A stretch of DNA of 60,600 nucleotides from an uncultured bacterium (lineage in GTDB: Bacteria; Auribacterota; Tritonobacteria; UBA1439): NCBI GenBank assembly GCA_964460305.1, contig CAYWRA010000003.1, positions 1 to 60,600 of the forward strand, written 5' to 3'. Below the pieces are notes generated by a model. That model saw only the letters and a list, made by a program, of their open reading frames with translations. It did no database searches and was not told the DNA's origin. A program made the position numbers and the translations under genes. Below, piece by piece: positions 35,418 through 46,369 of this stretch; the stretch's first letter is position 1, and each line of letters starts with the position of its first letter.

Positions 35418-36746
35418 TCACGTCCTCGGTCCGCTTCCGCCGGTACCATTCTCTATGATACCACAGACATCCCCCACCCAGGGACGGGCGGGAACGGCGG
35501 AATTTTCCAACCGGTTCGATCGCACAAAGAGAAAGGCATTATCCTGCGTGTGAGCCCCCGTGAATACGCCCCGCGTGGCAAGCTGATTCGCCGCCAGCCT
35601 GGCCTTCAGGTCAAAGCCGCGCTGAGGCAAAACAACCAGGTCGGGAGCACGGTCCGTGTAGGGGCCGAAGAACGTATCTTCGCGTCTGCACAGCCGCCGC
35701 ACCACGGGCCGGCCGCTTACCTTAAGCTCTCCGAAGGCCGCTTCGAGATCGTCCACGACCCGCGCCCTGTCCTTATCGCTAACGCAGCCCCTCGGGTACC
35801 TTCCCGCCGCGTTCACGTATATCCGCGCGGGGTCGAGGGCAAAGGCGCGCGATCCCTCCCCTACTCCTTCGAACGAGTCAACAGTCGGATTTACTATATG
35901 AAGGAACCCCTTTTCTTTCAAGAAATAATTCACGTTGACCTCGCTCTCGATCGTCCCAAACCCGTGATCGGAGAGCATCATAAAAAGATCGTCTTCCCCC
36001 AGCCCATCGTATATCTCACCGATGATTTCGTCTATCCTCTTAAAATGCCCACGGAACGCCTCGTGGTAGGGATGATCCGTTTTCCCGCATGCCTCAAAGA
36101 GGAAATGACTGAGGCGGTCCGTGCTGGTAAAGACAATGAAGAAAAGCCCGCACTCCTCCCGCTCCCAGAGGTAACGGAACGCCCTGATCCGAGCATCGAG
36201 CGTCTCCTCGCAATCACGGAGGAATGCGGCCATGTCGGTATGCCCCTTTGCCGCGTCCACGTCTATCCGGTAGCCGAGTTCCCGTAGTTTCGGAAGGAGG
36301 CTCTTGGGATAGACCGCCCGATCGATGTCAATCGCGACGAAACCGGAAATCATCACCCCATCGAGGGCGCGGGCGGGGTACGTTCCCGGGACGTTTAAAA
36401 TGACTGAGCGCCCAATAGGGAGCCTCTCCCAGAGGGGCGCGGCCTGGAGGTCGTTGAACGTGGGGAACGCGAAGCGGTACGTCCCCGGCGATAGATTCAT
36501 GAACCCATAGATGCCATGCTCGCCGGGATTCTTACCAGTGATCACCGTGCCCCATGCCACGCATGAGACGTCGGGTATGGACGATTCCATCCTCCTCATC
36601 TCGCCGGAGGAAAGGATCTTCCCCATGTTCGGCATGGTTCCGTCGGCCGCAAAGCGCACGATCAGCTCATGGGGAACACCGTCGAGACCGATGATAACGG
36701 CTCGGTTCTTATTTTGGGATTTGGGATTTGGGATTTGGGATTTCAC
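35418..36746 (-). CDS. AlkP-superfamily (NPP/phosphodiesterase-like) protein, no signal peptide
   Basis: IIGLDGVP, IPDVSCVAWGTVITGKNPGEHGIYGF, DRLSH, LSDHGF, TGAH. Confidence 0.88.
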   Translation of the reverse strand: MKSQIPNPKSQNKNRAVIIGLDGVPHELIVRFAADGTMPNMGKILSSGEMRRMESSIPDVSCVAWGTVITGKNPGEHGIYGFMNLSPGTYRFAFPTFNDLQAAPLWERLPIGRSVILNVPGTYPARALDGVMISGFVAIDIDRAVYPKSLLPKLRELGYRIDVDAAKGHTDMAAFLRDCEETLDARIRAFRYLWEREECGLFFIVFTSTDRLSHFLFEACGKTDHPYHEAFRGHFKRIDEIIGEIYDGLGEDDLFMMLSDHGFGTIESEVNVNYFLKEKGFLHIVNPTVDSFEGVGEGSRAFALDPARIYVNAAGRYPRGCVSDKDRARVVDDLEAAFGELKVSGRPVVRRLCRREDTFFGPYTDRAPDLVVLPQRGFDLKARLAANQLATRGVFTGAHTQDNAFLFVRSNRLENSAVPARPWVGDVCGIIENGTGGSGPRT

Positions 36747-36815: not shown

Positions 36816-38069
36816 TCACGCTGAATGTGTAATGATGACCCCCGCTACAATATCATTCCCGCGTTCCAGGACGAAACGGCCCATCTCGGGGATAAACGAA
36901 AACAGCTCGAACGCCAGCGGGCGCCCCATTTCGATGACGACTTCACCCACCTCGGTTTCATTAAGCGCGCGCGCACGTTCCTCAACCGTATCGAGCGTCG
37001 AGGAATCGATCCTCTTTCGTATCTCACTGATCGAGCATCGCCGCTCCTGCGTGTTCGCCCGTAATGTAAGCGTCTCGCCGAGCGTAAAAGGCCGGGGCGA
37101 CATCCAGAAGAGGCTCGCGGCGAGCCTCCGTTCCAGCCTCGGCGCGTTATCGGAAGAGCCCAGGACGTCCCCGCGCTTCACCGCGCCGTCCCCCGATAGC
37201 ACAATACCGATGCTCTCACCCGCCACAGCATCGCTCCGTTCTCTGCCGAACTCGAGAACCTGCGCGATCCTCGCCTCCCGCCGATCGGGGAAAATGGTGA
37301 TCTCGTCACCCTCGGCGAACCGGCCGGACTCTATCCTCCCCGCCACGATCTTCCGGCCCCCCCGCAGATACACGTCCTGGACGGGCATCCGGAGCGGCTT
37401 CTCATGTATATCCTTGTCCTTCTCCAGGGCATCGAGGGCCTCAAGGATCGTCGGGCCCGTATACCACGGCATCTTTTCCGAATGAGAGGCGAAGTTGTCG
37501 CCCCCGGTCCCGGAAACCGGAATGACGAAAGAGGGCGCGATGTCCAGCCGTTTTAGGAATGCGGCGATTTCGTCGCGGACCTCCTCAAATCTCTCCTTGC
37601 CGAACCCGACGAGGTCCATCTTGTTAAGGACCAGGATATTGCGCCTAAGGTTCAGCATGCCGAGAACGTAGGCATGGCGCCTCGTCTGCTCCATCACCCC
37701 TTCGTTCACGTCGATGACGAGGATCGACGTCTCCGCCTGGCTCGCCCCGGTGATCATGTTCTTCATAAACTCCTTGTGGCCAGGCGCGTCTATGATGACG
37801 TAGTCCCGCGTGGAAGTCCTGAAAAACGTCTGGGCGGTGTCGATGGTCATCCCCCGCTCACGCTCCTCCCGGAGGTGGTCCATCACGAATGCGAACTCAA
37901 CCGGCTTCCCCATCCCCTCGCAGGTTTGCCGGATGACCTCCATCCTGTCGGGAGGCAGCGAACCGGTATCGTACAGCAGCCGCCCGATGAGGGTGGACTT
38001 GCCGTGGTCCATATGCCCCACGATGACGATCTTCATGCTTTCACGCGCCGCCCTTTGATCTTCTTTCAA
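36816..38069 (-). CDS. cysN: Sulfate adenylyltransferase large (GTPase) subunit, no APS-kinase domain
   Basis: [32 protein letters not shown]; lies directly downstream of cysD. Confidence 0.9.
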
Positions 38070-38097: not shown

Positions 38098-38901
38098 TCA
38101 CATATACCCCAGCGCCCGCAGCTTCTGCATCGTGTACGCGTCTTCCTTGTCCTGCGCCCGCCCCGCCCGTTCTGAGATGTCCGTCGTCTCAATCTCATGG
38201 ATGATTTTGTCGATCGTGTCCGCATCCGAATCAACGGTGGAGCAACAGCACGCACAGCCGATGGAGCGGTAGCGCTTGCCGCCCTTCGCGAAGTAGAGGT
38301 CCACGATGGGGATGTTCTCCCGCTTGACATAGCGCCAGATGTCGAGCTCGGTCATGTGCAGGATCGGGTGGACCCTCAGGTGGTGGTGCCCCTCCGCGCT
38401 CGACTTGAACTGGTCCCAGAGCTCCGGCGGCTGGTCCTGATAGTTCCATTGGAACTGCTCGTCACGGGGGGAAAAATAACGCTCCTTGGCGCGTATCCCG
38501 TGCTCGTCCCTTCGGATCCCCAAGAGGATCGCATCAAGCTTCTCCCCGGCGATAAAATCCTTCAGTGCCTGCGTCTTCAGGGCATGGCAGCAATCGAGCT
38601 TGGATCCCTTGCCGGGGCCCATTCCCGCCGAGAGCGCCTTTTCGTTCCGCGCGATCTTCAGGTCGAGCCCCCACTCCCTCGCGTAGCGATCGCGGAACTC
38701 GTAAATCTCCTTGAATTTATATCCCGTATCTATGTGGATGATCGGAAATGGTATATCGCCAAAGAACGCCTTCCGTATCATCCAGAGCAGGGAGGTGGAA
38801 TCCTTCCCGATCGACCATAGCATCCCCATGCGGGGGAACCTGCTATAGGCCTCTCTGACGACGTATATCGTCCTGCTTTCCAGTTCGGTTAAATAATCCA
38901 T
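38098..38901 (-). CDS. cysD: Sulfate adenylyltransferase small subunit
   Basis: WSIGKDS, HIDTGYKF, GIRRDE, RAKERYFS, RVHP, RYRSIGC, ERAGRAQDKE. Confidence 0.93.
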   Translation of the reverse strand: MDYLTELESRTIYVVREAYSRFPRMGMLWSIGKDSTSLLWMIRKAFFGDIPFPIIHIDTGYKFKEIYEFRDRYAREWGLDLKIARNEKALSAGMGPGKGSKLDCCHALKTQALKDFIAGEKLDAILLGIRRDEHGIRAKERYFSPRDEQFQWNYQDQPPELWDQFKSSAEGHHHLRVHPILHMTELDIWRYVKRENIPIVDLYFAKGGKRYRSIGCACCCSTVDSDADTIDKIIHEIETTDISERAGRAQDKEDAYTMQKLRALGYM

Positions 38902-38965: not shown

Positions 38966-39790
38966 TCAAAACTCCACCCCGATAAAACGTTTGAGAAGCA
39001 TACCAAAGATGATCGCCATCAGGAAGTAGGCAATGCTCCAGTGCATCCGTATGCCGAATAAATTGATCCTGGAGGACCGATACTCTACCGAGATGGAATA
39101 CGCCGGGGAATCAGCAGGGAGGGGTCGATCGCCAGGATTGACGAGACTGTTAAGGAACGACTTCTTCGCAGTCACGGGATACAGCCTCTGCACCCCGTTG
39201 TCGATGACGATTTCTTTCCGTATGTCGAGGCCTCCAACGACAAACTCAAGATACTGGTCCCCGGTCTCCTTGACCCCGATCCTCCAATCCAGTTCTCCCT
39301 TTCCCGGAATGCGCATCGGCGGCGTCTCCAACTCAAGGCCGGGCGAGGTAGTAAGCCGCACCCCTTCCGCCGTCAGTGCCATGCCGGGCAATGCGTCCAA
39401 CGACGCGATGAACCTGTCGCCGGGCATCGGGCTTGCGTGTCCATAGCGCAACTGCATCTGGATGCAAATGAGCGCGATCGGCGCCAGCACCACTGCAAGA
39501 GGAACGAGCGAGTAGCCGACGTAGCGGAGAGAGCATGCGCACACATTCCCCAGAGACTTGATCACCTGTGACGGATCGTCCCTGAAAAGATATATCCCGA
39601 GGAAATGGCCCTGGACCTGTCTCTTGAGCCGCGCGATCGCAATCTGATTCGATACCAACTTATACACCGCCAAGATGACGACCGCGGTGAGCAAAGCCAG
39701 GAATGCCACACCCCATACCGGCGCCGCTTTTTGGAATGGAGCAAGAACGACGTCAAAGACCCGTGTTAGGATGTTGAAGAATGTGTTCAT
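38966..39790 (-). CDS. Membrane protein with DUF106/EMC3/TMCO1-like layout and an inserted soluble beta domain
   Basis: TM1 (GVAFLALLTAVVILAVYKLVSNQ) then an amphipathic/coiled segment and TM2 (PLAVVLAP); C-terminal HWSIAYFLMAIIFGMLLKRFIGV resembles the DUF106 end. The family assignment is by pattern only. Confidence 0.55.
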   Translation of the reverse strand: MNTFFNILTRVFDVVLAPFQKAAPVWGVAFLALLTAVVILAVYKLVSNQIAIARLKRQVQGHFLGIYLFRDDPSQVIKSLGNVCACSLRYVGYSLVPLAVVLAPIALICIQMQLRYGHASPMPGDRFIASLDALPGMALTAEGVRLTTSPGLELETPPMRIPGKGELDWRIGVKETGDQYLEFVVGGLDIRKEIVIDNGVQRLYPVTAKKSFLNSLVNPGDRPLPADSPAYSISVEYRSSRINLFGIRMHWSIAYFLMAIIFGMLLKRFIGVEF

Positions 39791-39865
39791 ATAAAATCCC
39801 AATCACATGATTCGTACTTCGTCGTTCGTACTTCGTTATTCGATGTACGAAGTGCGATGTACGCT

Positions 39866-40051
39866 TCACGACAAGTACCCCAGCCCCCGAAGTTTCTCCT
39901 TCACCTTTTCGGCATCGTCGCCCGAGCCGATGCCTGCGGCGGCTTTTTCGAGAACGTGCACAATGAATTCCTCCGCACTGGAATAGCCCGCCGCCGCGGC
40001 GCACTTTCCCAGCTTCTCGTACAAATCATTATCTATCCCGATTTTAGCCAT
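39866..40051 (-). CDS. Small ribbon-helix-helix-like protein with a C-terminal LRGLGY tail
   Basis: Strong RBS (GAAGGGAGAGGG); beta-alpha-alpha pattern KIGIDNDLYEKL..GYSSAEEFIVHVLE; ends EKVKEKLRGLGYLS. Confidence 0.75.
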   Translation of the reverse strand: MAKIGIDNDLYEKLGKCAAAAGYSSAEEFIVHVLEKAAAGIGSGDDAEKVKEKLRGLGYLS

Positions 40052-40236: not shown

Positions 40237-42237
40237 TCACATATACGGCAATGCCTTGATATTGTCACTGGATCCGGGCGGGGCTTGAAATACGTCATTC
40301 CCCACCATATCTTTCGGTTTCTCAATCCCGAACTCGGCCAGTATCGTCGGCGCGAGGTCGTACAGGTGCGGTTGCGCCAACGCTATCTTGCTGCTGGCGA
40401 ACAGGACGCCTGGCACCACCCCCGTCGCCCCGCAGTGGTCGCCGCTCCACTTCTCTTTGCTCACCGCGATGAGCTCCGCCATGACGTCGCCAAGCGCGCT
40501 CTCCCACGACGTCCGGTATCCCCAGTCATAGCCCACGATGATATCGGGCGCCGCGCCGACGTATTCCCCCGAATAAACATCTTTCGCAATGTGCGCGCAC
40601 TTCACCACCCTCGCGCCATTCGCTGGATCGGTCACCTTTTCGAGCTTTTCCTTGATCTCTTTCTGGAGCGCCTCAGCCTCGGCGCCGGAAGGGACGATGC
40701 CGTTTCTCTCCCTGCCGCGGAGGTTGAGATAAAGAGAGTTCAGCCCGAGCGCATATGCCCTCGTCCTCCCCCAGTCGACGTTCTTAAAGAGGGAGCCGGT
40801 TGCCGCGCCGTCCCTGAGAGTAAGGTAGCCATTCTGCATCAGCCACGTGTTGAGGCTGAAAGATTTATAATAGGGACCGAAGCCGTGGTCGGACATGACT
40901 ATGAGCGTCGTGCGATCATCGAATCTCGCAAACACCTTAGCGACCGTCTTATCCATCTCCTCGTAAATATTTTCGATGACGTCCCCGAGCCGCTCTCTCG
41001 CGGCGGCGTCATACATCTGGTGGTTCCTATCCCGGAGGTGCCAGAAGATGTGCGTGCCCAAATCGGTGCTCGAATAGTAATAGAAGAAGAAACCCCGCGT
41101 GAACTTCGAGAAGAGGTAGTCGAAGAGGCGGTGGTTCTCTTCGAGGACCATATGGAACTGCGTGTAGAACTCGTCCGTGGTAAAGGTGTCGTTCGTCAGG
41201 GTCTTGGTGTTCTCCGGCATGCCCTGCGTGTAGAAATAACCGACATTGTCGGCGATCTCCTTGGCATACCCTTTTGGCGTGTCGATCGGCAGGGCCGGAT
41301 GTTTCGGGTCTATGTTGATCGGCGTCACGTAGAGCCTGAAATGCGGAGCGACCTCCTTTAGATAAAACCGGCAGATCCCTTTCACGGAGGGGACCAGCGG
41401 CAGCGTCGGGAAGTCCAGGACGATCCAGTCGCTCCATTCCCCCTGAGAAAGGATGATGCGCTGCCCGGGAAGGTCGATCCTCGCCATGCGCTGCAGCGGA
41501 TCAAGGCAGGCGGTGAAATCGACCGTGATCTTAGGAGATCCCTTCTTGTAGCTGTTGCGCGGGCCGGCGATCGAGGACCGGACAACGTCGCCCACACAAC
41601 TAACGCGGGTGAATTCGGCCCCCGACGGATCCTTGGGGATATCGGAGGCGCACGTCGTGAAGTATTGGTAGATTCCGTAGGTCCCCATCAGGTCGGGAGT
41701 TCCCATCCCGGATACGCTCTTCGCCCCGCACTCCACGGGAGGGAAGTTCGACGGTATCTTGAATATGACCGCTGGGATTCCCTTCTCGGACAAATACTCC
41801 CAGAACGCCTTCCCCTGTCTCTTCAATACCACGGACCCGCTCGATAAGGGTATTACATATTCGCCGACCTTAAGCGTGCGCATGGGAGGGATCGTCTCGG
41901 AGGTCGAGAGATAGGGAAGGTAGGTGGAGGGATCCCTGTGGACGAAATCAAAGATCGCATGCCCCCCGGGGTTTTTCCCGGTGATGAAGTTGGACCAGGC
42001 GACGGGGCTCTGGGGCGGTATGCTCGACCAGAGGTCTTTGAAGCCCCCCATCTCGGCCAATTTCCTCAAGTTCGGGAGTTTGCCTTTTGCGAACATCTCC
42101 CGCACGATCCTCGGGTCCATTCCGTCGAATCCGAGGACGATCACTTTCTTATCCCCGGCCCACTCCGCACGACGGCCGCAGTTCAGCGACAGGAGACAGG
42201 AAAGGAGAACCGTCCCCAAAATTAACATTCTTTTCAT
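40237..42237 (-). CDS. AlkP-superfamily (NPP-like) protein with an N-terminal export or lipoprotein-like signal
   Basis: MKRMLILGTVLLSCLLSLNC; VLGFDGMD, PPQSPVAWSNFITGKNPGGH, DLGTH, MSDHGF, SGDH. Confidence 0.88.
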   Translation of the reverse strand: MKRMLILGTVLLSCLLSLNCGRRAEWAGDKKVIVLGFDGMDPRIVREMFAKGKLPNLRKLAEMGGFKDLWSSIPPQSPVAWSNFITGKNPGGHAIFDFVHRDPSTYLPYLSTSETIPPMRTLKVGEYVIPLSSGSVVLKRQGKAFWEYLSEKGIPAVIFKIPSNFPPVECGAKSVSGMGTPDLMGTYGIYQYFTTCASDIPKDPSGAEFTRVSCVGDVVRSSIAGPRNSYKKGSPKITVDFTACLDPLQRMARIDLPGQRIILSQGEWSDWIVLDFPTLPLVPSVKGICRFYLKEVAPHFRLYVTPINIDPKHPALPIDTPKGYAKEIADNVGYFYTQGMPENTKTLTNDTFTTDEFYTQFHMVLEENHRLFDYLFSKFTRGFFFYYYSSTDLGTHIFWHLRDRNHQMYDAAARERLGDVIENIYEEMDKTVAKVFARFDDRTTLIVMSDHGFGPYYKSFSLNTWLMQNGYLTLRDGAATGSLFKNVDWGRTRAYALGLNSLYLNLRGRERNGIVPSGAEAEALQKEIKEKLEKVTDPANGARVVKCAHIAKDVYSGEYVGAAPDIIVGYDWGYRTSWESALGDVMAELIAVSKEKWSGDHCGATGVVPGVLFASSKIALAQPHLYDLAPTILAEFGIEKPKDMVGNDVFQAPPGSSDNIKALPYM

Positions 42238-42611
42238 GATTGCACTTTTTACTTCCACAAAGAGTAAAAGTTAACCTGGCCTACTCACTAACCACCGATG
42301 CCATACTCCAACTTTCAACGTTCTTATCCACGTCCCAACGGGATCCCTTCGGGACGTGGATTCCAACAGTTCTCTCGATTTCTCTTTCCCTCTTTTACTC
42401 TTTGTAAAACAACTGCCTTGTTTTCTCTGCGTACTCTGCGGTGAGCTATTAACCTGATCTATTCATCAACTTTGATCGGCCGATAAATACTTACTGTAGC
42501 GTAAATAGTTATGCAAAACTGCCAACATTCCGCACCAGACTAGTCGGTGCGGGGTTAACCCCGTAGGGTGGATTATTCATCTCACATTTCAAACGAGATG
42601 AATAATCCGGA

Positions 42612-44711
42612 TTAAAGCTCCACCCCCAACACCTTCCCGTCCATGTACACCGGCGGCGCGATGCCGAAGAGGTCGAGGACCGTTGGAGCGATGTCCTGGA
42701 TGTGGGGCGCGCTAGAGCCGATCCTCCGGTTGCAAAATAACACCCCGGGAACGAACCGGTGGTCGATGCAGTGGTCCGCGCTCCATGCCCTCTCATTGTC
42801 CTCGATTACTTCGGCGCCCACCCGCCCGGTGACCGACTCCCACGATGCCCGATAACCCGGCCGGTAGCCGACGATAAGATCGGGTGCGTTTTCGGCGTAC
42901 GGCCCGCGATAGATCTCGCGCGTGTCGTAGACCGCGGCGATCGGGGTGTCGCCTGACCGCTCGTCCTTTAGCCCCTGAATCTTTCCGGCAATCTCCCTTT
43001 TTATCGCCTCGGCATCGCGTGGATCGACGAGCCCTTCGGCCTCCCTCCCCTTGAGGTTCAGGTAGATGCCCGATAGCCCGAGGGCGTATGCCTTCGTCTT
43101 CCGCCAATCGACGCCCTTAAACCATTCACCGCACGTCGTGGCATTGTCTTTCATGCTAAGGTATCCGTTTTTATGGAGCCAGGCGTTGACGTTCACACCC
43201 CTGCGGAACGTCTTGAACCCGTGATCGGAGAGGACGACCAGAACGTCTCCGGGCGAGAGCTGTTTCCTTACGCGGCCGACAAGCTCGTCCATTCTTGCAT
43301 AGAGATCCGCAATTATTGACGGGCGGGAGGGCTGGCCTTCCGGAAGCGCCGGATGGCCCGTGTCGAGATAGCGCCAGAATTCGTGCTGGATGGCGTCGGT
43401 GGCGTCGAAGACGCAGCAGAGAACACCCCGATTCACTTGCGCCATTGAACGGAAAAATATCTCTTCGAGCTCGGCGTGCATACGGTACGTCTGCTGGAGG
43501 AACGCGTCATCGGTTAAAACCTTCTCGTTGAGGGCCCAGGTGTCTTGCGGTAAGCCCAGCGTTGCGAAAGGCCCCGCAATTTTACTCAGATACACGGAGT
43601 ATATCAGCGGATGTGAAACGGGTAGCGCCGGTTTCTCGGGGTCGATATGGATGGGGGAAAGATAAAGCTCAAGGGACGGCGTCGTACGTTTCAGGAAAAA
43701 GTGGGCGATCCCGGTGATCGTCGTAGCAAGACCCGCCTTGAATTTCAGGCGGATCCAATCCGTCATCTCACCCTCGCGAAGCGTCCACTTGGCACGCCCG
43801 ATCGTCAACGTCGCCGTCTTCCCTTCCCCGTCCACCATGATCCTCAGGGGAATTCGCAAATCCCTATCCGGCTTGAACGGGTCCCGCGGGCCGGAGATAA
43901 ACGCGTCATAAACAGGGCCATGCCCATCGAGGCGCACAAGAAAGCCTCCCGTATATGACGTCTCGTGCGACGCCGCATCGGTGTAGAAGGCGAACGTCCC
44001 CTGTGAGCCCTTAAGATCCGGCGTGCACAGCCCAGAGAGGAGCAAACCCTTAAATCTCTCCGGAGGAAACGTGATCGGGACCTTCAGTACGATGCTAGGG
44101 ACCCCATGTTCACCTAGGATCTTCCAAAATGGAACGCTCTTCCGCAACATCTTGATCCGGGGCTTCCCTATGGGGAGTTGCCACCTGCCTAAACCCACCG
44201 ACCTGGCCGTCTCCGCGATCTCCGCCGAGGAGAGGGAAGGCATGTAGGTCTTTGCATTACGGCTTAGGAAATCAAAGATGTTATGCTTCCCAGGATTGAC
44301 GCCCGTCATGAACGACGACCATGCGACCGGCGATATCGGGGGATTGGTCGTGCGTAGGGGCGAGAAACAACCCTCCCGGCGCATGGCCGAGAGGTTCGGA
44401 AGCTTCCCCTCGTTCATATAAGAAACTGCGAGCTCTGGATCCAGACCGTCAAGACCGACGATGATCAGCCGCCCGACGCGCGCGGCGGAGAGCGCTTTTT
44501 TCGACCGGAGCTTCCTCACGCACAATCTCACCGGAAGAGTCAGCAGCACGACGATCGCCAGGAGAATCCCGCCGAGGATAAAGATGAACGAGCTCAGGAA
44601 AGCGAATCCCGCGCCCGGCCCGATATACCCCAATGCCGACGAGGGGAGGAACAGCGCTCCGACTGCGCACGCTTCCACGCAATATGTAAAATATTTACAG
44701 GGTCTTGTCAT
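42612..44711 (-). CDS. AlkP-superfamily (NPP-like) protein with an N-terminal YIGPGAG membrane anchor
   Basis: Signal-like segment, YIGPGAGFAFL TM helix, RKLRSKK; then VGLDGLD, PPISPVAWSSFMTGVNPGKH, DAIQH, LSDHGF and SADH. The 914-aa ORF call over-extends through repeats. Confidence 0.85.
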   Translation of the reverse strand: MTRPCKYFTYCVEACAVGALFLPSSALGYIGPGAGFAFLSSFIFILGGILLAIVVLLTLPVRLCVRKLRSKKALSAARVGRLIIVGLDGLDPELAVSYMNEGKLPNLSAMRREGCFSPLRTTNPPISPVAWSSFMTGVNPGKHNIFDFLSRNAKTYMPSLSSAEIAETARSVGLGRWQLPIGKPRIKMLRKSVPFWKILGEHGVPSIVLKVPITFPPERFKGLLLSGLCTPDLKGSQGTFAFYTDAASHETSYTGGFLVRLDGHGPVYDAFISGPRDPFKPDRDLRIPLRIMVDGEGKTATLTIGRAKWTLREGEMTDWIRLKFKAGLATTITGIAHFFLKRTTPSLELYLSPIHIDPEKPALPVSHPLIYSVYLSKIAGPFATLGLPQDTWALNEKVLTDDAFLQQTYRMHAELEEIFFRSMAQVNRGVLCCVFDATDAIQHEFWRYLDTGHPALPEGQPSRPSIIADLYARMDELVGRVRKQLSPGDVLVVLSDHGFKTFRRGVNVNAWLHKNGYLSMKDNATTCGEWFKGVDWRKTKAYALGLSGIYLNLKGREAEGLVDPRDAEAIKREIAGKIQGLKDERSGDTPIAAVYDTREIYRGPYAENAPDLIVGYRPGYRASWESVTGRVGAEVIEDNERAWSADHCIDHRFVPGVLFCNRRIGSSAPHIQDIAPTVLDLFGIAPPVYMDGKVLGVEL

Positions 44712-44986: not shown

Positions 44987-46369
44987 TCACATGATCCCGT
45001 ACTTCTTCAACTTGTACCACAAGTTCCGCTCGCTGATCCCCAGGAGTTTCGCGGCGCGCGCCTTGACGCCATCGGCTTCCCTCAATGCCTTTCCGATCAT
45101 CTCTCTCTCGAGCGACGACACCGCCCCATCCAGATCGCCACGGGCCCCAGCCGCAAGGCTGGGGACACCCGAACTCCTCTCCGGCGCGCCATAGACGATC
45201 TCCGGCGGCAAGTCGTCCATCTCGATCCGGCCCGTGGCGTTCAGCGCCACGGCCCGCTCGATCACGTTTTCCATCTCGCGCACGTTCCCAGGCCAACCGT
45301 ACAGGCTGAGCGCCCTCAATGCACCCTCCGAGGGCGGGGCGACCTCCTTCCCCCACTCGCTGGAGTATTTTCCGGTGAAATACTCGGCCAGCGGCTGGAT
45401 ATCCTCAACCCGCTCCCGTAAGGGGGGGACGACGATTTTCACCACGTTCAATCGGTAGTAAAGATCCTCGCGAAAATTTTTCTCCTGGATCATATCTTTC
45501 AGGTCTTTGTTCGTAGCGGCAATAACCCGCACGTTCACGCCGATCGTTTCGGCGCTCCCCACCTTTTCGAATTCTTTCTCCTGCAGCACGCGGAGAATCT
45601 TCGCTTGAAGCGCCAACTCCATGTCGCCGATTTCGTCAAAGAAGATACTGCCGCCGTCGGCCTTTTCGAATCTCCCCGTCCGCTCGACCTCGGCCCCGGT
45701 GAATGCGCCTTTCACGTGGCCGAATAGCTCGCTCTCGAGAAGCGTCGCGGGGATCGCCGCGCAGTTCACCGCGACAAACAGCTTATCCCTGCGGACGCTC
45801 TTATCGTGTAGGGAGCGCGCGAGAAGCTCTTTGCCGGTGCCCGTCTCCCCGTAGAACAACACCGAGGCGTCCGTGCGGGCAAGCCTGTCGATAAGGGAAT
45901 GGATCTCCCTCATCTTTTTGCTGCACCCGACGATCTGCTGCCCCTCGTGCTGCTGCTTCAGCTCCTCCTTGAGATAAACGTTCTCTCTCCTCACCTTCTC
46001 AAACTCGAAGACCTTGGAGATCACCATCTCGATGCTGTCGACGTCAAAGGGCTTGAGAATGTAGTCACTCGCCCCCTGCTTCATCGCCTCCACGGCGCTC
46101 TTGATCGTCCCATACGCGGTCATGATCACCACGGGCATCTTCAACACCCTCCGCCTAATTTCCATGAGGAGATCGATCCCGCTCATCCCCGTGGGCATTT
46201 TGAGGTCGGTGAGCACCAGATCCACGCGTTTCCCGTCAAGGATCCTGATCGCCTCCTCGGCGTTGTCCGCCTGGAGCGATTCATAACCGAGCTCCTCAAG
46301 CATCATCTCCGCGAGCCGGAGCATGTTGCGCTCGTCGTCGACAACGAGTATGCGTTTTTTCATAAGCAA
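44987..46369 (-). CDS. Sigma54-dependent response regulator (NtrC/AtoC family)
   Basis: Receiver (ILVVDDE, TDLKMP), GETGTGKE, ESELFGHVKGAFTGA, FFDEIG, WPGNVREMEN, Fis HTH. Confidence 0.95.
   Translation of the reverse strand: MLMKKRILVVDDERNMLRLAEMMLEELGYESLQADNAEEAIRILDGKRVDLVLTDLKMPTGMSGIDLLMEIRRRVLKMPVVIMTAYGTIKSAVEAMKQGASDYILKPFDVDSIEMVISKVFEFEKVRRENVYLKEELKQQHEGQQIVGCSKKMREIHSLIDRLARTDASVLFYGETGTGKELLARSLHDKSVRRDKLFVAVNCAAIPATLLESELFGHVKGAFTGAEVERTGRFEKADGGSIFFDEIGDMELALQAKILRVLQEKEFEKVGSAETIGVNVRVIAATNKDLKDMIQEKNFREDLYYRLNVVKIVVPPLRERVEDIQPLAEYFTGKYSSEWGKEVAPPSEGALRALSLYGWPGNVREMENVIERAVALNATGRIEMDDLPPEIVYGAPERSSGVPSLAAGARGDLDGAVSSLEREMIGKALREADGVKARAAKLLGISERNLWYKLKKYGIM

Follow-up and report, generated by a model that had tools for sequence, protein, structure and literature searches.

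What does a protein laid out like the three-helix insertases of archaea and eukaryotes do in a bacterial gene cluster for AlkP-superfamily enzymes? The question is raised by a 60,600-nucleotide stretch of DNA (the window: positions 1 to 60,600 of contig CAYWRA010000003.1, assembly GCA_964460305.1) from an uncultured bacterium of the Auribacterota (Tritonobacteria; UBA1439), in which a minus-strand open reading frame at 38966-39790 encodes a 274-residue membrane protein. A first-pass annotation, made from the letters of the window without database searches, had described this protein as having an Oxa1-superfamily layout that resembles DUF106, EMC3 and TMCO1 and had suggested that it is dedicated to an unusually anchored AlkP enzyme encoded nearby. 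The gene is real and under selection, and profile comparisons indicate that its product is very probably a bacterial homologue within the DUF106/Ylp1 branch of the Oxa1 superfamily. Its presence is tied to that of a single PF01663 (AlkP-superfamily) enzyme, here termed AlkP_A, and it appears to supply the membrane part of a conserved module made up of AlkP_A, usually a second PF01663 enzyme (AlkP_B), and a 61-residue protein.

The open reading frame begins with an ATG at 39790 and ends with a stop codon at 38966-38968, and the start is supported by close homologues, which use the same methionine in the alignment. Hydropathy analysis finds three hydrophobic segments (residues 24-46, 93-116 and 251-270), giving a core of three transmembrane (TM) helices. 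An AlphaFold2 (AF2) model of the full protein, built with 20 homologues as input, has a mean predicted local distance difference test score (pLDDT) of 87.5 and a predicted template modelling score (pTM) of 0.76. The gene and the parts of its product are as follows.

38966..39790, minus strand: gene for the DUF106/Ylp1-like (Oxa1-superfamily) membrane protein, 274 residues (open reading frame, family alignment, profile match to 5C8J, hhalign 96.8%)
Residues 2-15: amphipathic N-terminal helix (AF2 and hydropathy)
39653..39721, minus strand: TM1, residues 24-46, with conserved S32, T35 and L40, followed by S47 and Q49 at its cytoplasmic end (hydropathy, conservation, AF2 helix)
39515..39646, minus strand: cytoplasmic helical hairpin, residues 49-92, with K56, L68, D71-D72 and an invariant Y90 (AF2 helices 49-68 and 73-92, conservation)
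39443..39514, minus strand: TM2, residues 93-116, with the P97-x6-P104 pair, Q111 and Y116-G117 (AF2, conservation)
39041..39439, minus strand: periplasmic immunoglobulin (Ig)-like beta-sandwich insert of about 132 residues, residues 118-250, between TM2 and TM3 (AF2 strands, Foldseek)
38981..39040, minus strand: TM3, residues 251-270, with invariant W251, F/Y255, S259, L266 and K267, then G271-V272 (conservation, AF2)

The open reading frame, hydropathy and AF2 model agree with the coordinates and the layout first proposed for this protein, namely TM1, a helical hairpin, TM2, a beta-rich insert of ~130 residues and a C-terminal W..Y...K..GV pattern. The second hairpin helix continues directly into TM2, to residue 116, in the AF2 model. 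The C-terminal segment, HWSIAYFLMAIIFGMLLKRFIGVEF, carries the pattern as H250-W251, Y255, K267 and G271-V272. The basic residues of the hairpin (K56, R57, R70 and K78) and those following TM3 (K267 and R268) agree with the positive-inside rule, and the protein is accordingly predicted to adopt an N-out/C-in topology with a cytoplasmic hairpin. Small or polar residues are conserved within the membrane segments (S32, T35, Q111 and S259) and at their edges, with S47 and Q49 just past TM1 and H250 just ahead of TM3. A set of family-specific conserved residues, Q111, Y116, G117, H250 and W251, clusters at the periplasmic ends of TM2 and TM3, beside the Ig-like domain. The best Foldseek matches to that domain are the N-domain of a cyclomaltodextrinase (1h3g_A, E 4e-3), the S-layer protein SbsC and the N-domain of SusA.

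The family is large. A word-indexed search returned 22 relatives with 32-84% identity, and close relatives belong to metagenome-assembled genomes of Candidatus Auribacterota (Tritonobacter, Euphemobacter and Erginobacter; PVC group). An exhaustive profile search found 2940 representative clusters (at 50% identity) with E<=1e-3 and 973 with E<=1e-30; nearly all of the top 150 clusters are full-length proteins of ~260-305 residues that share the architecture described above. A GV(E/D)(F/I/L) C-terminus is conserved in the family and reads ...RFIGVEF in the window (38966-38990, minus strand); AlkP_A ends similarly in ...KVLGVEL (42612-42630, minus strand), which for AlkP_A may be chance.

Firstly, is this protein a true relative of the DUF106 proteins? 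When the family profile was searched against all PDB sequences with hmmsearch, the sole significant match was the archaeal protein MJ0480/Ylp1 (5C8J; E 1.3e-9, residues 4-124), and there was no direct match to EMC3, GET1/WRB or TMCO1. A profile of 55 sequences recovered 5C8J at E 1.4e-10 together with a weak, collinear second segment that pairs residues 248-273 with chain positions 173-198. An independently built alignment of 16 Methanococcales DUF106 proteins, each carrying PF01956, was then compared with the bacterial family by hhalign, which gave a probability of 96.8% (E 2.8e-10) over 190 aligned columns. All three TM helices and the hairpin are covered by this alignment, in which the beta domain appears as an insertion. 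Reversing either alignment lowered the score from 71.3 to 14.5-14.8 (probability 0.2%), and 30 column shuffles scored at most 28.0, so the resemblance is not compositional.

Identity to Ylp1 is ~20%, and the positions conserved in the two families coincide. They include D13 and P18 ahead of TM1, Q49 (the invariant Q51 of Ylp1), K56 in the hairpin, P97-x6-P104 (the invariant P102 and P109) and Y116-G117, which pairs with a YG in Ylp1. In TM3 the coinciding positions are W251, F/Y255, S259, L266, K267, G271 and V272, whose Ylp1 counterparts are W176, Y180, S184, L191, R192, G196 and I197. The hairpin itself aligns with the coiled-coil hairpin of Ylp1, and several family members are labelled 'uncharacterized membrane protein (DUF106 family)' in IMG. 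A profile match to the three-TM Oxa1 core therefore exists, and the DUF106-type reading of the first-pass annotation is supported by both the 5C8J match and the controlled hhalign comparison.

The second part of the question concerns the partner. AlkP_A is a PF01663 enzyme encoded upstream of the DUF106-like gene, and its N-terminus has an unusual composition that could be described in 27 distinct orthologues.

42612..44711, minus strand: AlkP_A, PF01663 enzyme with a procoat-like N-terminal anchor and the probable client or partner of the DUF106-like protein (Pfam, N-terminus, orthologues)
44526..44711, minus strand: AlkP_A anchor, consisting of a signal peptide (44628-44711) and YIGPGAG with a 26-residue hydrophobic segment ending in LPVR (44526-44627), then a Lys/Arg cluster

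In the window this N-terminus reads MTRPCKYFTYCVEACAVGALFLPSSALG followed by YIGPGAGFAFLSSFIFILGGILLAIVVLLTLPV and then RLCVRKLRSKK. All orthologues begin with a typical signal peptide, that is, a basic n-region followed by a hydrophobic core. The residues preceding the tyrosine of the Y[IV]GPGAG motif obey the -3/-1 rule: position -1 is Ala in 24 sequences and Gly in 3, position -2 is variable, and position -3 is Ala in 17, Ser in 4, Val in 3 and Cys, Phe or Leu in one each. The hydrophobic stretch after the motif is exactly 26 residues long in 27/27, with a conserved start (FA.xSSF) and end (L[TA][LW]P[FVL]R). The 15 residues after it contain 3-8 Lys/Arg (at least 5 in 26/27) and almost no acidic residues, and the catalytic domain follows; by the positive-inside rule, the enzyme domain would be cytoplasmic. 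A phmmer search of PDB sequences with AlkP_A returned no match.

Taken together, these features suggest that the signal peptide and TM segment of AlkP_A go into the membrane as a hairpin whose periplasmic turn is only ~7 residues long, that signal peptidase I cleavage leaves the tyrosine as the new N-terminus, and, by analogy, that the anchor has the topology of M13 procoat. M13 procoat and Pf3 coat share with the anchor a signal peptide, a very short periplasmic segment, a TM helix and a basic cytoplasmic stretch. They also share a signal peptide that ends in a site for signal peptidase I, which in AlkP_A is predicted from sequence. They differ in that the AlkP_A anchor precedes a predicted cytoplasmic enzyme domain of ~650 residues, and in that hardly any variation is seen between phyla in its predicted mature N-terminus (Y[IV]GPGAGFA.). 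Hairpins whose translocated loops are short can be inserted by YidC on its own, M13 procoat being the textbook YidC-dependent substrate. More broadly, the translocon-independent clients of YidC/Oxa1 proteins are topologically simple and have small translocated regions (PMC5868721). The Y[IV]GPGAG-type motif occurs once in the genome of the window; a role for the anchor as the mark of many client proteins was ruled out, as the motif is found once per genome.

How closely are the gene and the anchor tied? The anchor was searched as Y[IVM]GPGAGFAF, back-translated to a degenerate DNA pattern, in 79 species genomes of Auribacterota. The DUF106-like gene is present in 22/79, always as a single copy, and the pattern occurs in exactly those 22, once each; the other 57 genomes contain neither, and a reversed-pattern control gave zero matches in the 79 (Fisher's exact p = 5e-20, uncorrected for phylogeny). 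Both presence and absence of the gene are seen within at least three families (f1, f5 and f9), indicating that the co-occurrence is not the effect of a single clade. Gene and anchor lie on different contigs in 9/22 carriers, and in at least five of those (G010, G020, G022, G023 and G024) the flanking genes demonstrate a true separation, with AlkP_A, AlkP_B and the 61-residue gene still together.

A second sample of 201 evenly drawn Acidobacteriota genomes was searched with at most one mismatch allowed in the pattern. Here the gene is present in 58/201 and the pattern in 46/201, 45 of these 46 being gene carriers, and in 39/45 the two are 4-6.3 kb apart on the same contig. In the sole pattern-only genome, the pattern lies 1.3 kb from a contig end. 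Ten of the 13 gene-only genomes were inspected, and AlkP_A adjoins the gene in 10/10; nine carry a variant anchor, YIGPGAGFA[LV] or YIGPGAGVAF, and the tenth AlkP_A runs beyond the stretch examined. The anchor is thus present in at least 55/58 carriers and absent in 142/143 non-carriers (p about 1e-44). Prevalence of the gene is similar in the two samples, at 29% of Acidobacteriota and 28% of Auribacterota species. Co-occurrence in two phyla ties the presence of the gene to one anchored enzyme and argues against a general second insertase. The dedicated link to the YIGPGAG-anchored enzyme that had been proposed at first is borne out at the genomic level by this near-perfect co-occurrence; the insertase activity that went with it is a proposal, taken up below.

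In the window, the two genes belong to a cluster of seven co-oriented minus-strand genes, which includes three PF01663 genes and cysDN. In addition to AlkP_A and the DUF106-like gene, the cluster contains the following.

40237..42258, minus strand: AlkP_B, PF01663 paralogue carrying a signal of the export or lipoprotein type, predicted to be periplasmic (Pfam; adjacent in nearly all loci)
39866..40051, minus strand: 61-residue ribbon-helix-helix-like protein with a conserved K+L+GLGY[IL][SG] tail (sequence pattern)
38098..38865, minus strand: cysD, ATP sulfurylase small subunit, a frequent, not obligate, neighbour (PF01507)
36816..38069, minus strand: cysN, ATP sulfurylase GTPase subunit with no adenosine 5'-phosphosulfate (APS)-kinase domain, a frequent neighbour (Pfam)
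35418..36746, minus strand: AlkP_C, third PF01663 paralogue with no signal sequence, predicted to be cytoplasmic, a frequent neighbour (Pfam)

The order AlkP_A, AlkP_B, 61-residue gene, DUF106-like gene recurs in most Auribacterota loci, and the same order is found in Acidobacteriota (~30% identity) and in an unclassified metagenome contig (L020). In place of cysDN, the flanks of the L020 module hold two to three sulfatases, a GT2 and PMT_2 glycosyltransferases. One Acidobacteriota locus (L038; G244:C7) has AlkP_A, the 61-residue gene and the DUF106-like gene with no AlkP_B between them. In family f9 (L001, L010, L012, L016 and L017), the DUF106-like gene lies outside the module, and AlkP_A, AlkP_B and the 61-residue gene still form a group at another place in the genome. 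The neighbours of the DUF106-like gene in L001 are an FG-GAP protein on one side and, on the other, envelope genes of the GT2, PRK, PMT_2 and UbiA types. The cysD gene is present in L003, L005, L007, L018, L029-L031 and L034 and absent from others. An Acidobacteriota orthologue of AlkP_B gave a faint match to a twin-arginine translocation (TAT) signal.

Nearly all of the linked loci examined have the 61-residue gene immediately upstream of the DUF106-like gene. In G022 and G024, from whose modules the DUF106-like gene has moved out, the 61-residue gene still accompanies AlkP_A and AlkP_B. Its product has an N-terminal half of the form K[IV]K[IL]D..aGYSS.EEFI.H.LEK, an acidic linker and a K+L+GLGY[IL][SG] tail. 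Weak matches to the N-terminus of NikR, together with this sequence pattern, hint at a ribbon-helix-helix fold, and the protein may be a cytoplasmic adaptor. Its tail, EKLRGLGYLS, is conserved across phyla and resembles the end of CysD, QKLRALGYM (38098-38130, minus strand); both tails may recognise a similar type of binding site. The 61-residue protein is also found in loci without cysDN.

What, then, could the DUF106-like protein do for AlkP_A? We rate as roughly an even prospect, on the sequence evidence, that it is a dedicated insertase or assembly partner for the AlkP_A anchor. The N-terminus of AlkP_A would enter the membrane as a procoat-like hairpin formed by the signal peptide, the 7-residue YIGPGAG turn and the 26-residue TM segment, and its insertion would be catalysed or chaperoned by the DUF106-like protein. 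Signal peptidase I would then cut directly before the tyrosine, and the DUF106-like protein would probably remain bound to the anchor in physical contact, on the model of the EMC3-EMC6 and GET1-GET2 pairs. The Ig-like domain of the DUF106-like protein would face the periplasm, the predicted compartment of AlkP_B. Because the genome encodes a normal YidC, a 554-residue protein of the Gram-negative type on a separate contig, the DUF106-like protein does not resemble a general insertase.

Two observations suggest a lasting association rather than insertion only. The first is that the half of the anchor nearest the periplasm hardly varies between phyla, a degree of conservation far beyond what anchoring needs. 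The second is that relatives hold their partners: the distal face of the last core helix is where a partner TM protein binds to EMC3 and GET1, as seen in solved structures, and to archaeal YidC, as indicated by co-evolution (bioRxiv 10.1101/2020.12.20.422553). EMC3, GET1/WRB and TMCO1, the Oxa1 members of the endoplasmic reticulum, share the three-TM core and hairpin layout and act in stable complexes with a partner TM protein (EMC6 or GET2), a model borrowed here for the binding of the AlkP_A anchor. They differ in their partners, and the bacterial protein is placed in the inner membrane with a periplasmic Ig-like domain.

The DUF106-like protein is probably homologous to Ylp1 and EMC3 and probably works like them. 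Ylp1 (DUF106, PF01956, 5C8J) shares with it the N-helix, TM1, cytoplasmic hairpin, TM2, extracytoplasmic loop and TM3, along with conserved D, P and, after TM1, Q residues, the hairpin K, the P-x6-P and YG of TM2 and the W..(F/Y)...S......L(K/R)...G(V/I) of TM3. Unlike the bacterial protein, Ylp1 is archaeal, has a more charged hairpin and has a TM2-TM3 loop of ~50 residues in place of the ~130-residue Ig-like domain; the bacterial protein also falls below the Pfam threshold. Ylp1 is taken as a general archaeal insertase (PMC5868721), whereas the bacterial protein is tied to one client-like enzyme. Bacterial YidC (PF02096) belongs to the same superfamily, and Gram-negative YidC also has a large periplasmic beta domain. 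However, YidC has five core TM helices compared to three in the DUF106-like protein, and its P1 beta domain follows an extra N-terminal TM helix, in contrast to the small Ig-like fold between TM2 and TM3. A comparison of the DUF106-like family with the genome's own YidC was not significant (hhalign probability 0.3%), and a Pfam scan of the protein gave no PF02096 match.

Several points weigh against this reading of homology and function. Pfam and NCBIfam scans assign no family to the protein; it does not reach the threshold of PF01956 (Pfam DUF106), a whole-genome PF01956 search misses the gene, and among relatives PF01956 is found in 1/20 only, at a sub-threshold E of 0.047. A Foldseek comparison, suggested in the first-pass annotation as a check, did not return an Oxa1-family match: the full model gave only Ig-like/E-set matches to the insert in the PDB, none with E<1e-3, and a separate model of residues 1-125 (pLDDT 73, pTM 0.39) gave only generic helical proteins with E>0.4. 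The homology claim therefore rests on sequence profiles. With respect to function, the hairpin is less charged than that of Ylp1 and there is no basic C-terminal tail, and thus no sign of ribosome docking. The cell's YidC and Sec should manage a hairpin of this kind, which leaves the need for a dedicated insertase unexplained. Finally, the co-occurrence, which is uncorrected for phylogeny, shows dependence and not which activity underlies it.

A rather unlikely alternative, and one that overlaps with the dedicated-insertase proposal in that both include lasting binding, is that the protein has lost insertase function and serves as a permanent structural subunit, clamping the AlkP_A anchor, docking AlkP_B through its Ig-like domain and so keeping the two enzymes opposite one another, with insertion of AlkP_A left to YidC/Sec. 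A canonical YidC is available in the genome to do so, the weakly charged hairpin and missing ribosome-binding tail fit a protein that no longer inserts, and the Ig-like domain is predicted to lie on AlkP_B's side of the membrane. The periplasm-proximal anchor sequence Y[IV]GPGAGFAxxSSF, conserved far beyond the needs of a plain anchor, and the family-specific Q111, Y116, G117, H250 and W251 at the periplasmic ends of TM2 and TM3 are also in keeping with a clamp. On the other hand, L038 keeps the DUF106-like and 61-residue genes in a module with no AlkP_B, and the core positions shared with Ylp1 are still conserved, suggesting that the ancestral activity was kept.

An improbable alternative is that a membrane-thinning groove in the protein acts as a conduit or scramblase, passing a small polar or lipid-linked intermediate, such as a sulfated or phosphorylated group or carrier, between cytoplasmic AlkP_A and periplasmic AlkP_B. 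AlkP paralogues are predicted on both membrane faces, and the module is often accompanied by cysDN, sulfatase, GT2 and PMT_2 genes. A Ca2+ channel role has been put forward for TMCO1, of the DUF106 branch, and ion conduction has been shown for the Sec translocon and Oxa1 (PMC5868721). On the other hand, some loci of the module lack cysDN and the other envelope genes as neighbours. The tight co-occurrence is specifically with the anchor motif, and three TM helices are few for a selective pathway.

It is very improbable that the protein is a general auxiliary insertase, a second YidC-like pathway whose position in the AlkP cluster is incidental. One Auribacterota family does have the gene away from the AlkP genes, beside GT2, PMT_2 and UbiA genes, but the gene comes and goes with the anchored enzyme without exception in the 79 genomes and with almost none in the 201, the two genes are 4-6 kb apart in most carriers, and the gene is found in only 28-29% of the genomes of either phylum. 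A general second insertase was rejected on this gene-anchor co-occurrence in two phyla. Equally slight is the chance that an unrelated three-TM protein resembles DUF106 by convergence or composition: Pfam PF01956 and Foldseek fail to detect a relationship and identity to Ylp1 is only ~20%, but the profile E-values of 1e-9 to 1e-10 come with a unique top match, all three TM helices align collinearly with matched conserved residues, the reversed and shuffled controls score far lower, and several members already bear the DUF106 label in IMG.

Returning to the dedicated-insertase proposal, a more elaborate version is possible, and we put it forward tentatively. In bacteria of several phyla, a second Oxa1-superfamily protein of the archaeal/eukaryotic three-TM type may have been kept and recruited both as a single-client insertase and as a permanent core subunit, comparable to EMC3-EMC6 or GET1-GET2. 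It would insert and then hold the procoat-like, processed anchor of cytoplasmic AlkP_A and align AlkP_A with its exported paralogue through the Ig-like domain. Together they would form an undescribed envelope machine with two sides, which might carry out sulfate- or phosphate-ester chemistry with CysDN as its supplier.

The cluster has further features. A gene for a sigma-54-type response regulator (44987-46369, minus strand) lies immediately upstream of AlkP_A, and in a relative (L003) the upstream genes encode a histidine kinase, a sigma-54 activator and a PAP2 protein. A search for sigma-54 elements was not above chance: the nearest site lacks the GG, and there is no convincing -24/-12 element before AlkP_A. 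Similarly, a scan for sigma-70 promoters and terminators gave counts equal to those in shuffled sequences. The gap of ~350 nucleotides between the AlkP_A stop and the AlkP_B start (42259-42611) exceeds the other gaps in the cluster. Between the 61-residue gene and the DUF106-like gene, the intergenic RNA (39791-39865, minus strand) is predicted to form a stable hairpin of GTACGAA/TTCGTAC repeats (-27 kcal/mol, z -3.76, 0/200 shuffles as stable), and a second RNA hairpin covers the ATG of the DUF106-like gene. The intergenic hairpin could set differential expression within the operon. The start of AlkP_C (36711-36746, minus strand), MKSQIPNPKSQNKN, is encoded by heptamer repeats and has no bearing on the DUF106-like gene.

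In the papers searched, the DUF106/Ylp1/EMC3 branch is described as archaeal and eukaryotic, with bacteria credited with five-TM YidC only (PMC5868721, PMC8887752, bioRxiv 10.1101/2020.12.20.422553), and a literature search found nothing on this bacterial family or its anchor motif. We regard the family as a bacterial variant of the DUF106/Ylp1 branch that is distinguished by its insert and by a dedicated partner in the genome. The profile comparison with its controls, the co-occurrence counts in two phyla and the anchor statistics come from the present analysis, the co-occurrence being a new finding. In some Acidobacteriota carriers, the gene is on contigs of 3 to 5 Mb that resemble complete chromosomes; these carriers may be cultured strains, which would make experiments feasible. 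The family is common, its domain architecture is new, and in genomes it is paired one-to-one with a single procoat-like anchor that is highly conserved. If the proposed reading is true, the account of how the two Oxa1 branches are distributed across the domains of life changes. It would also provide a naturally occurring insertase with a single defined client, a pair suited to studying the mechanism of a minimal three-TM insertase, and would reveal an unstudied membrane module of AlkP-fold enzymes on both faces of the inner membrane.

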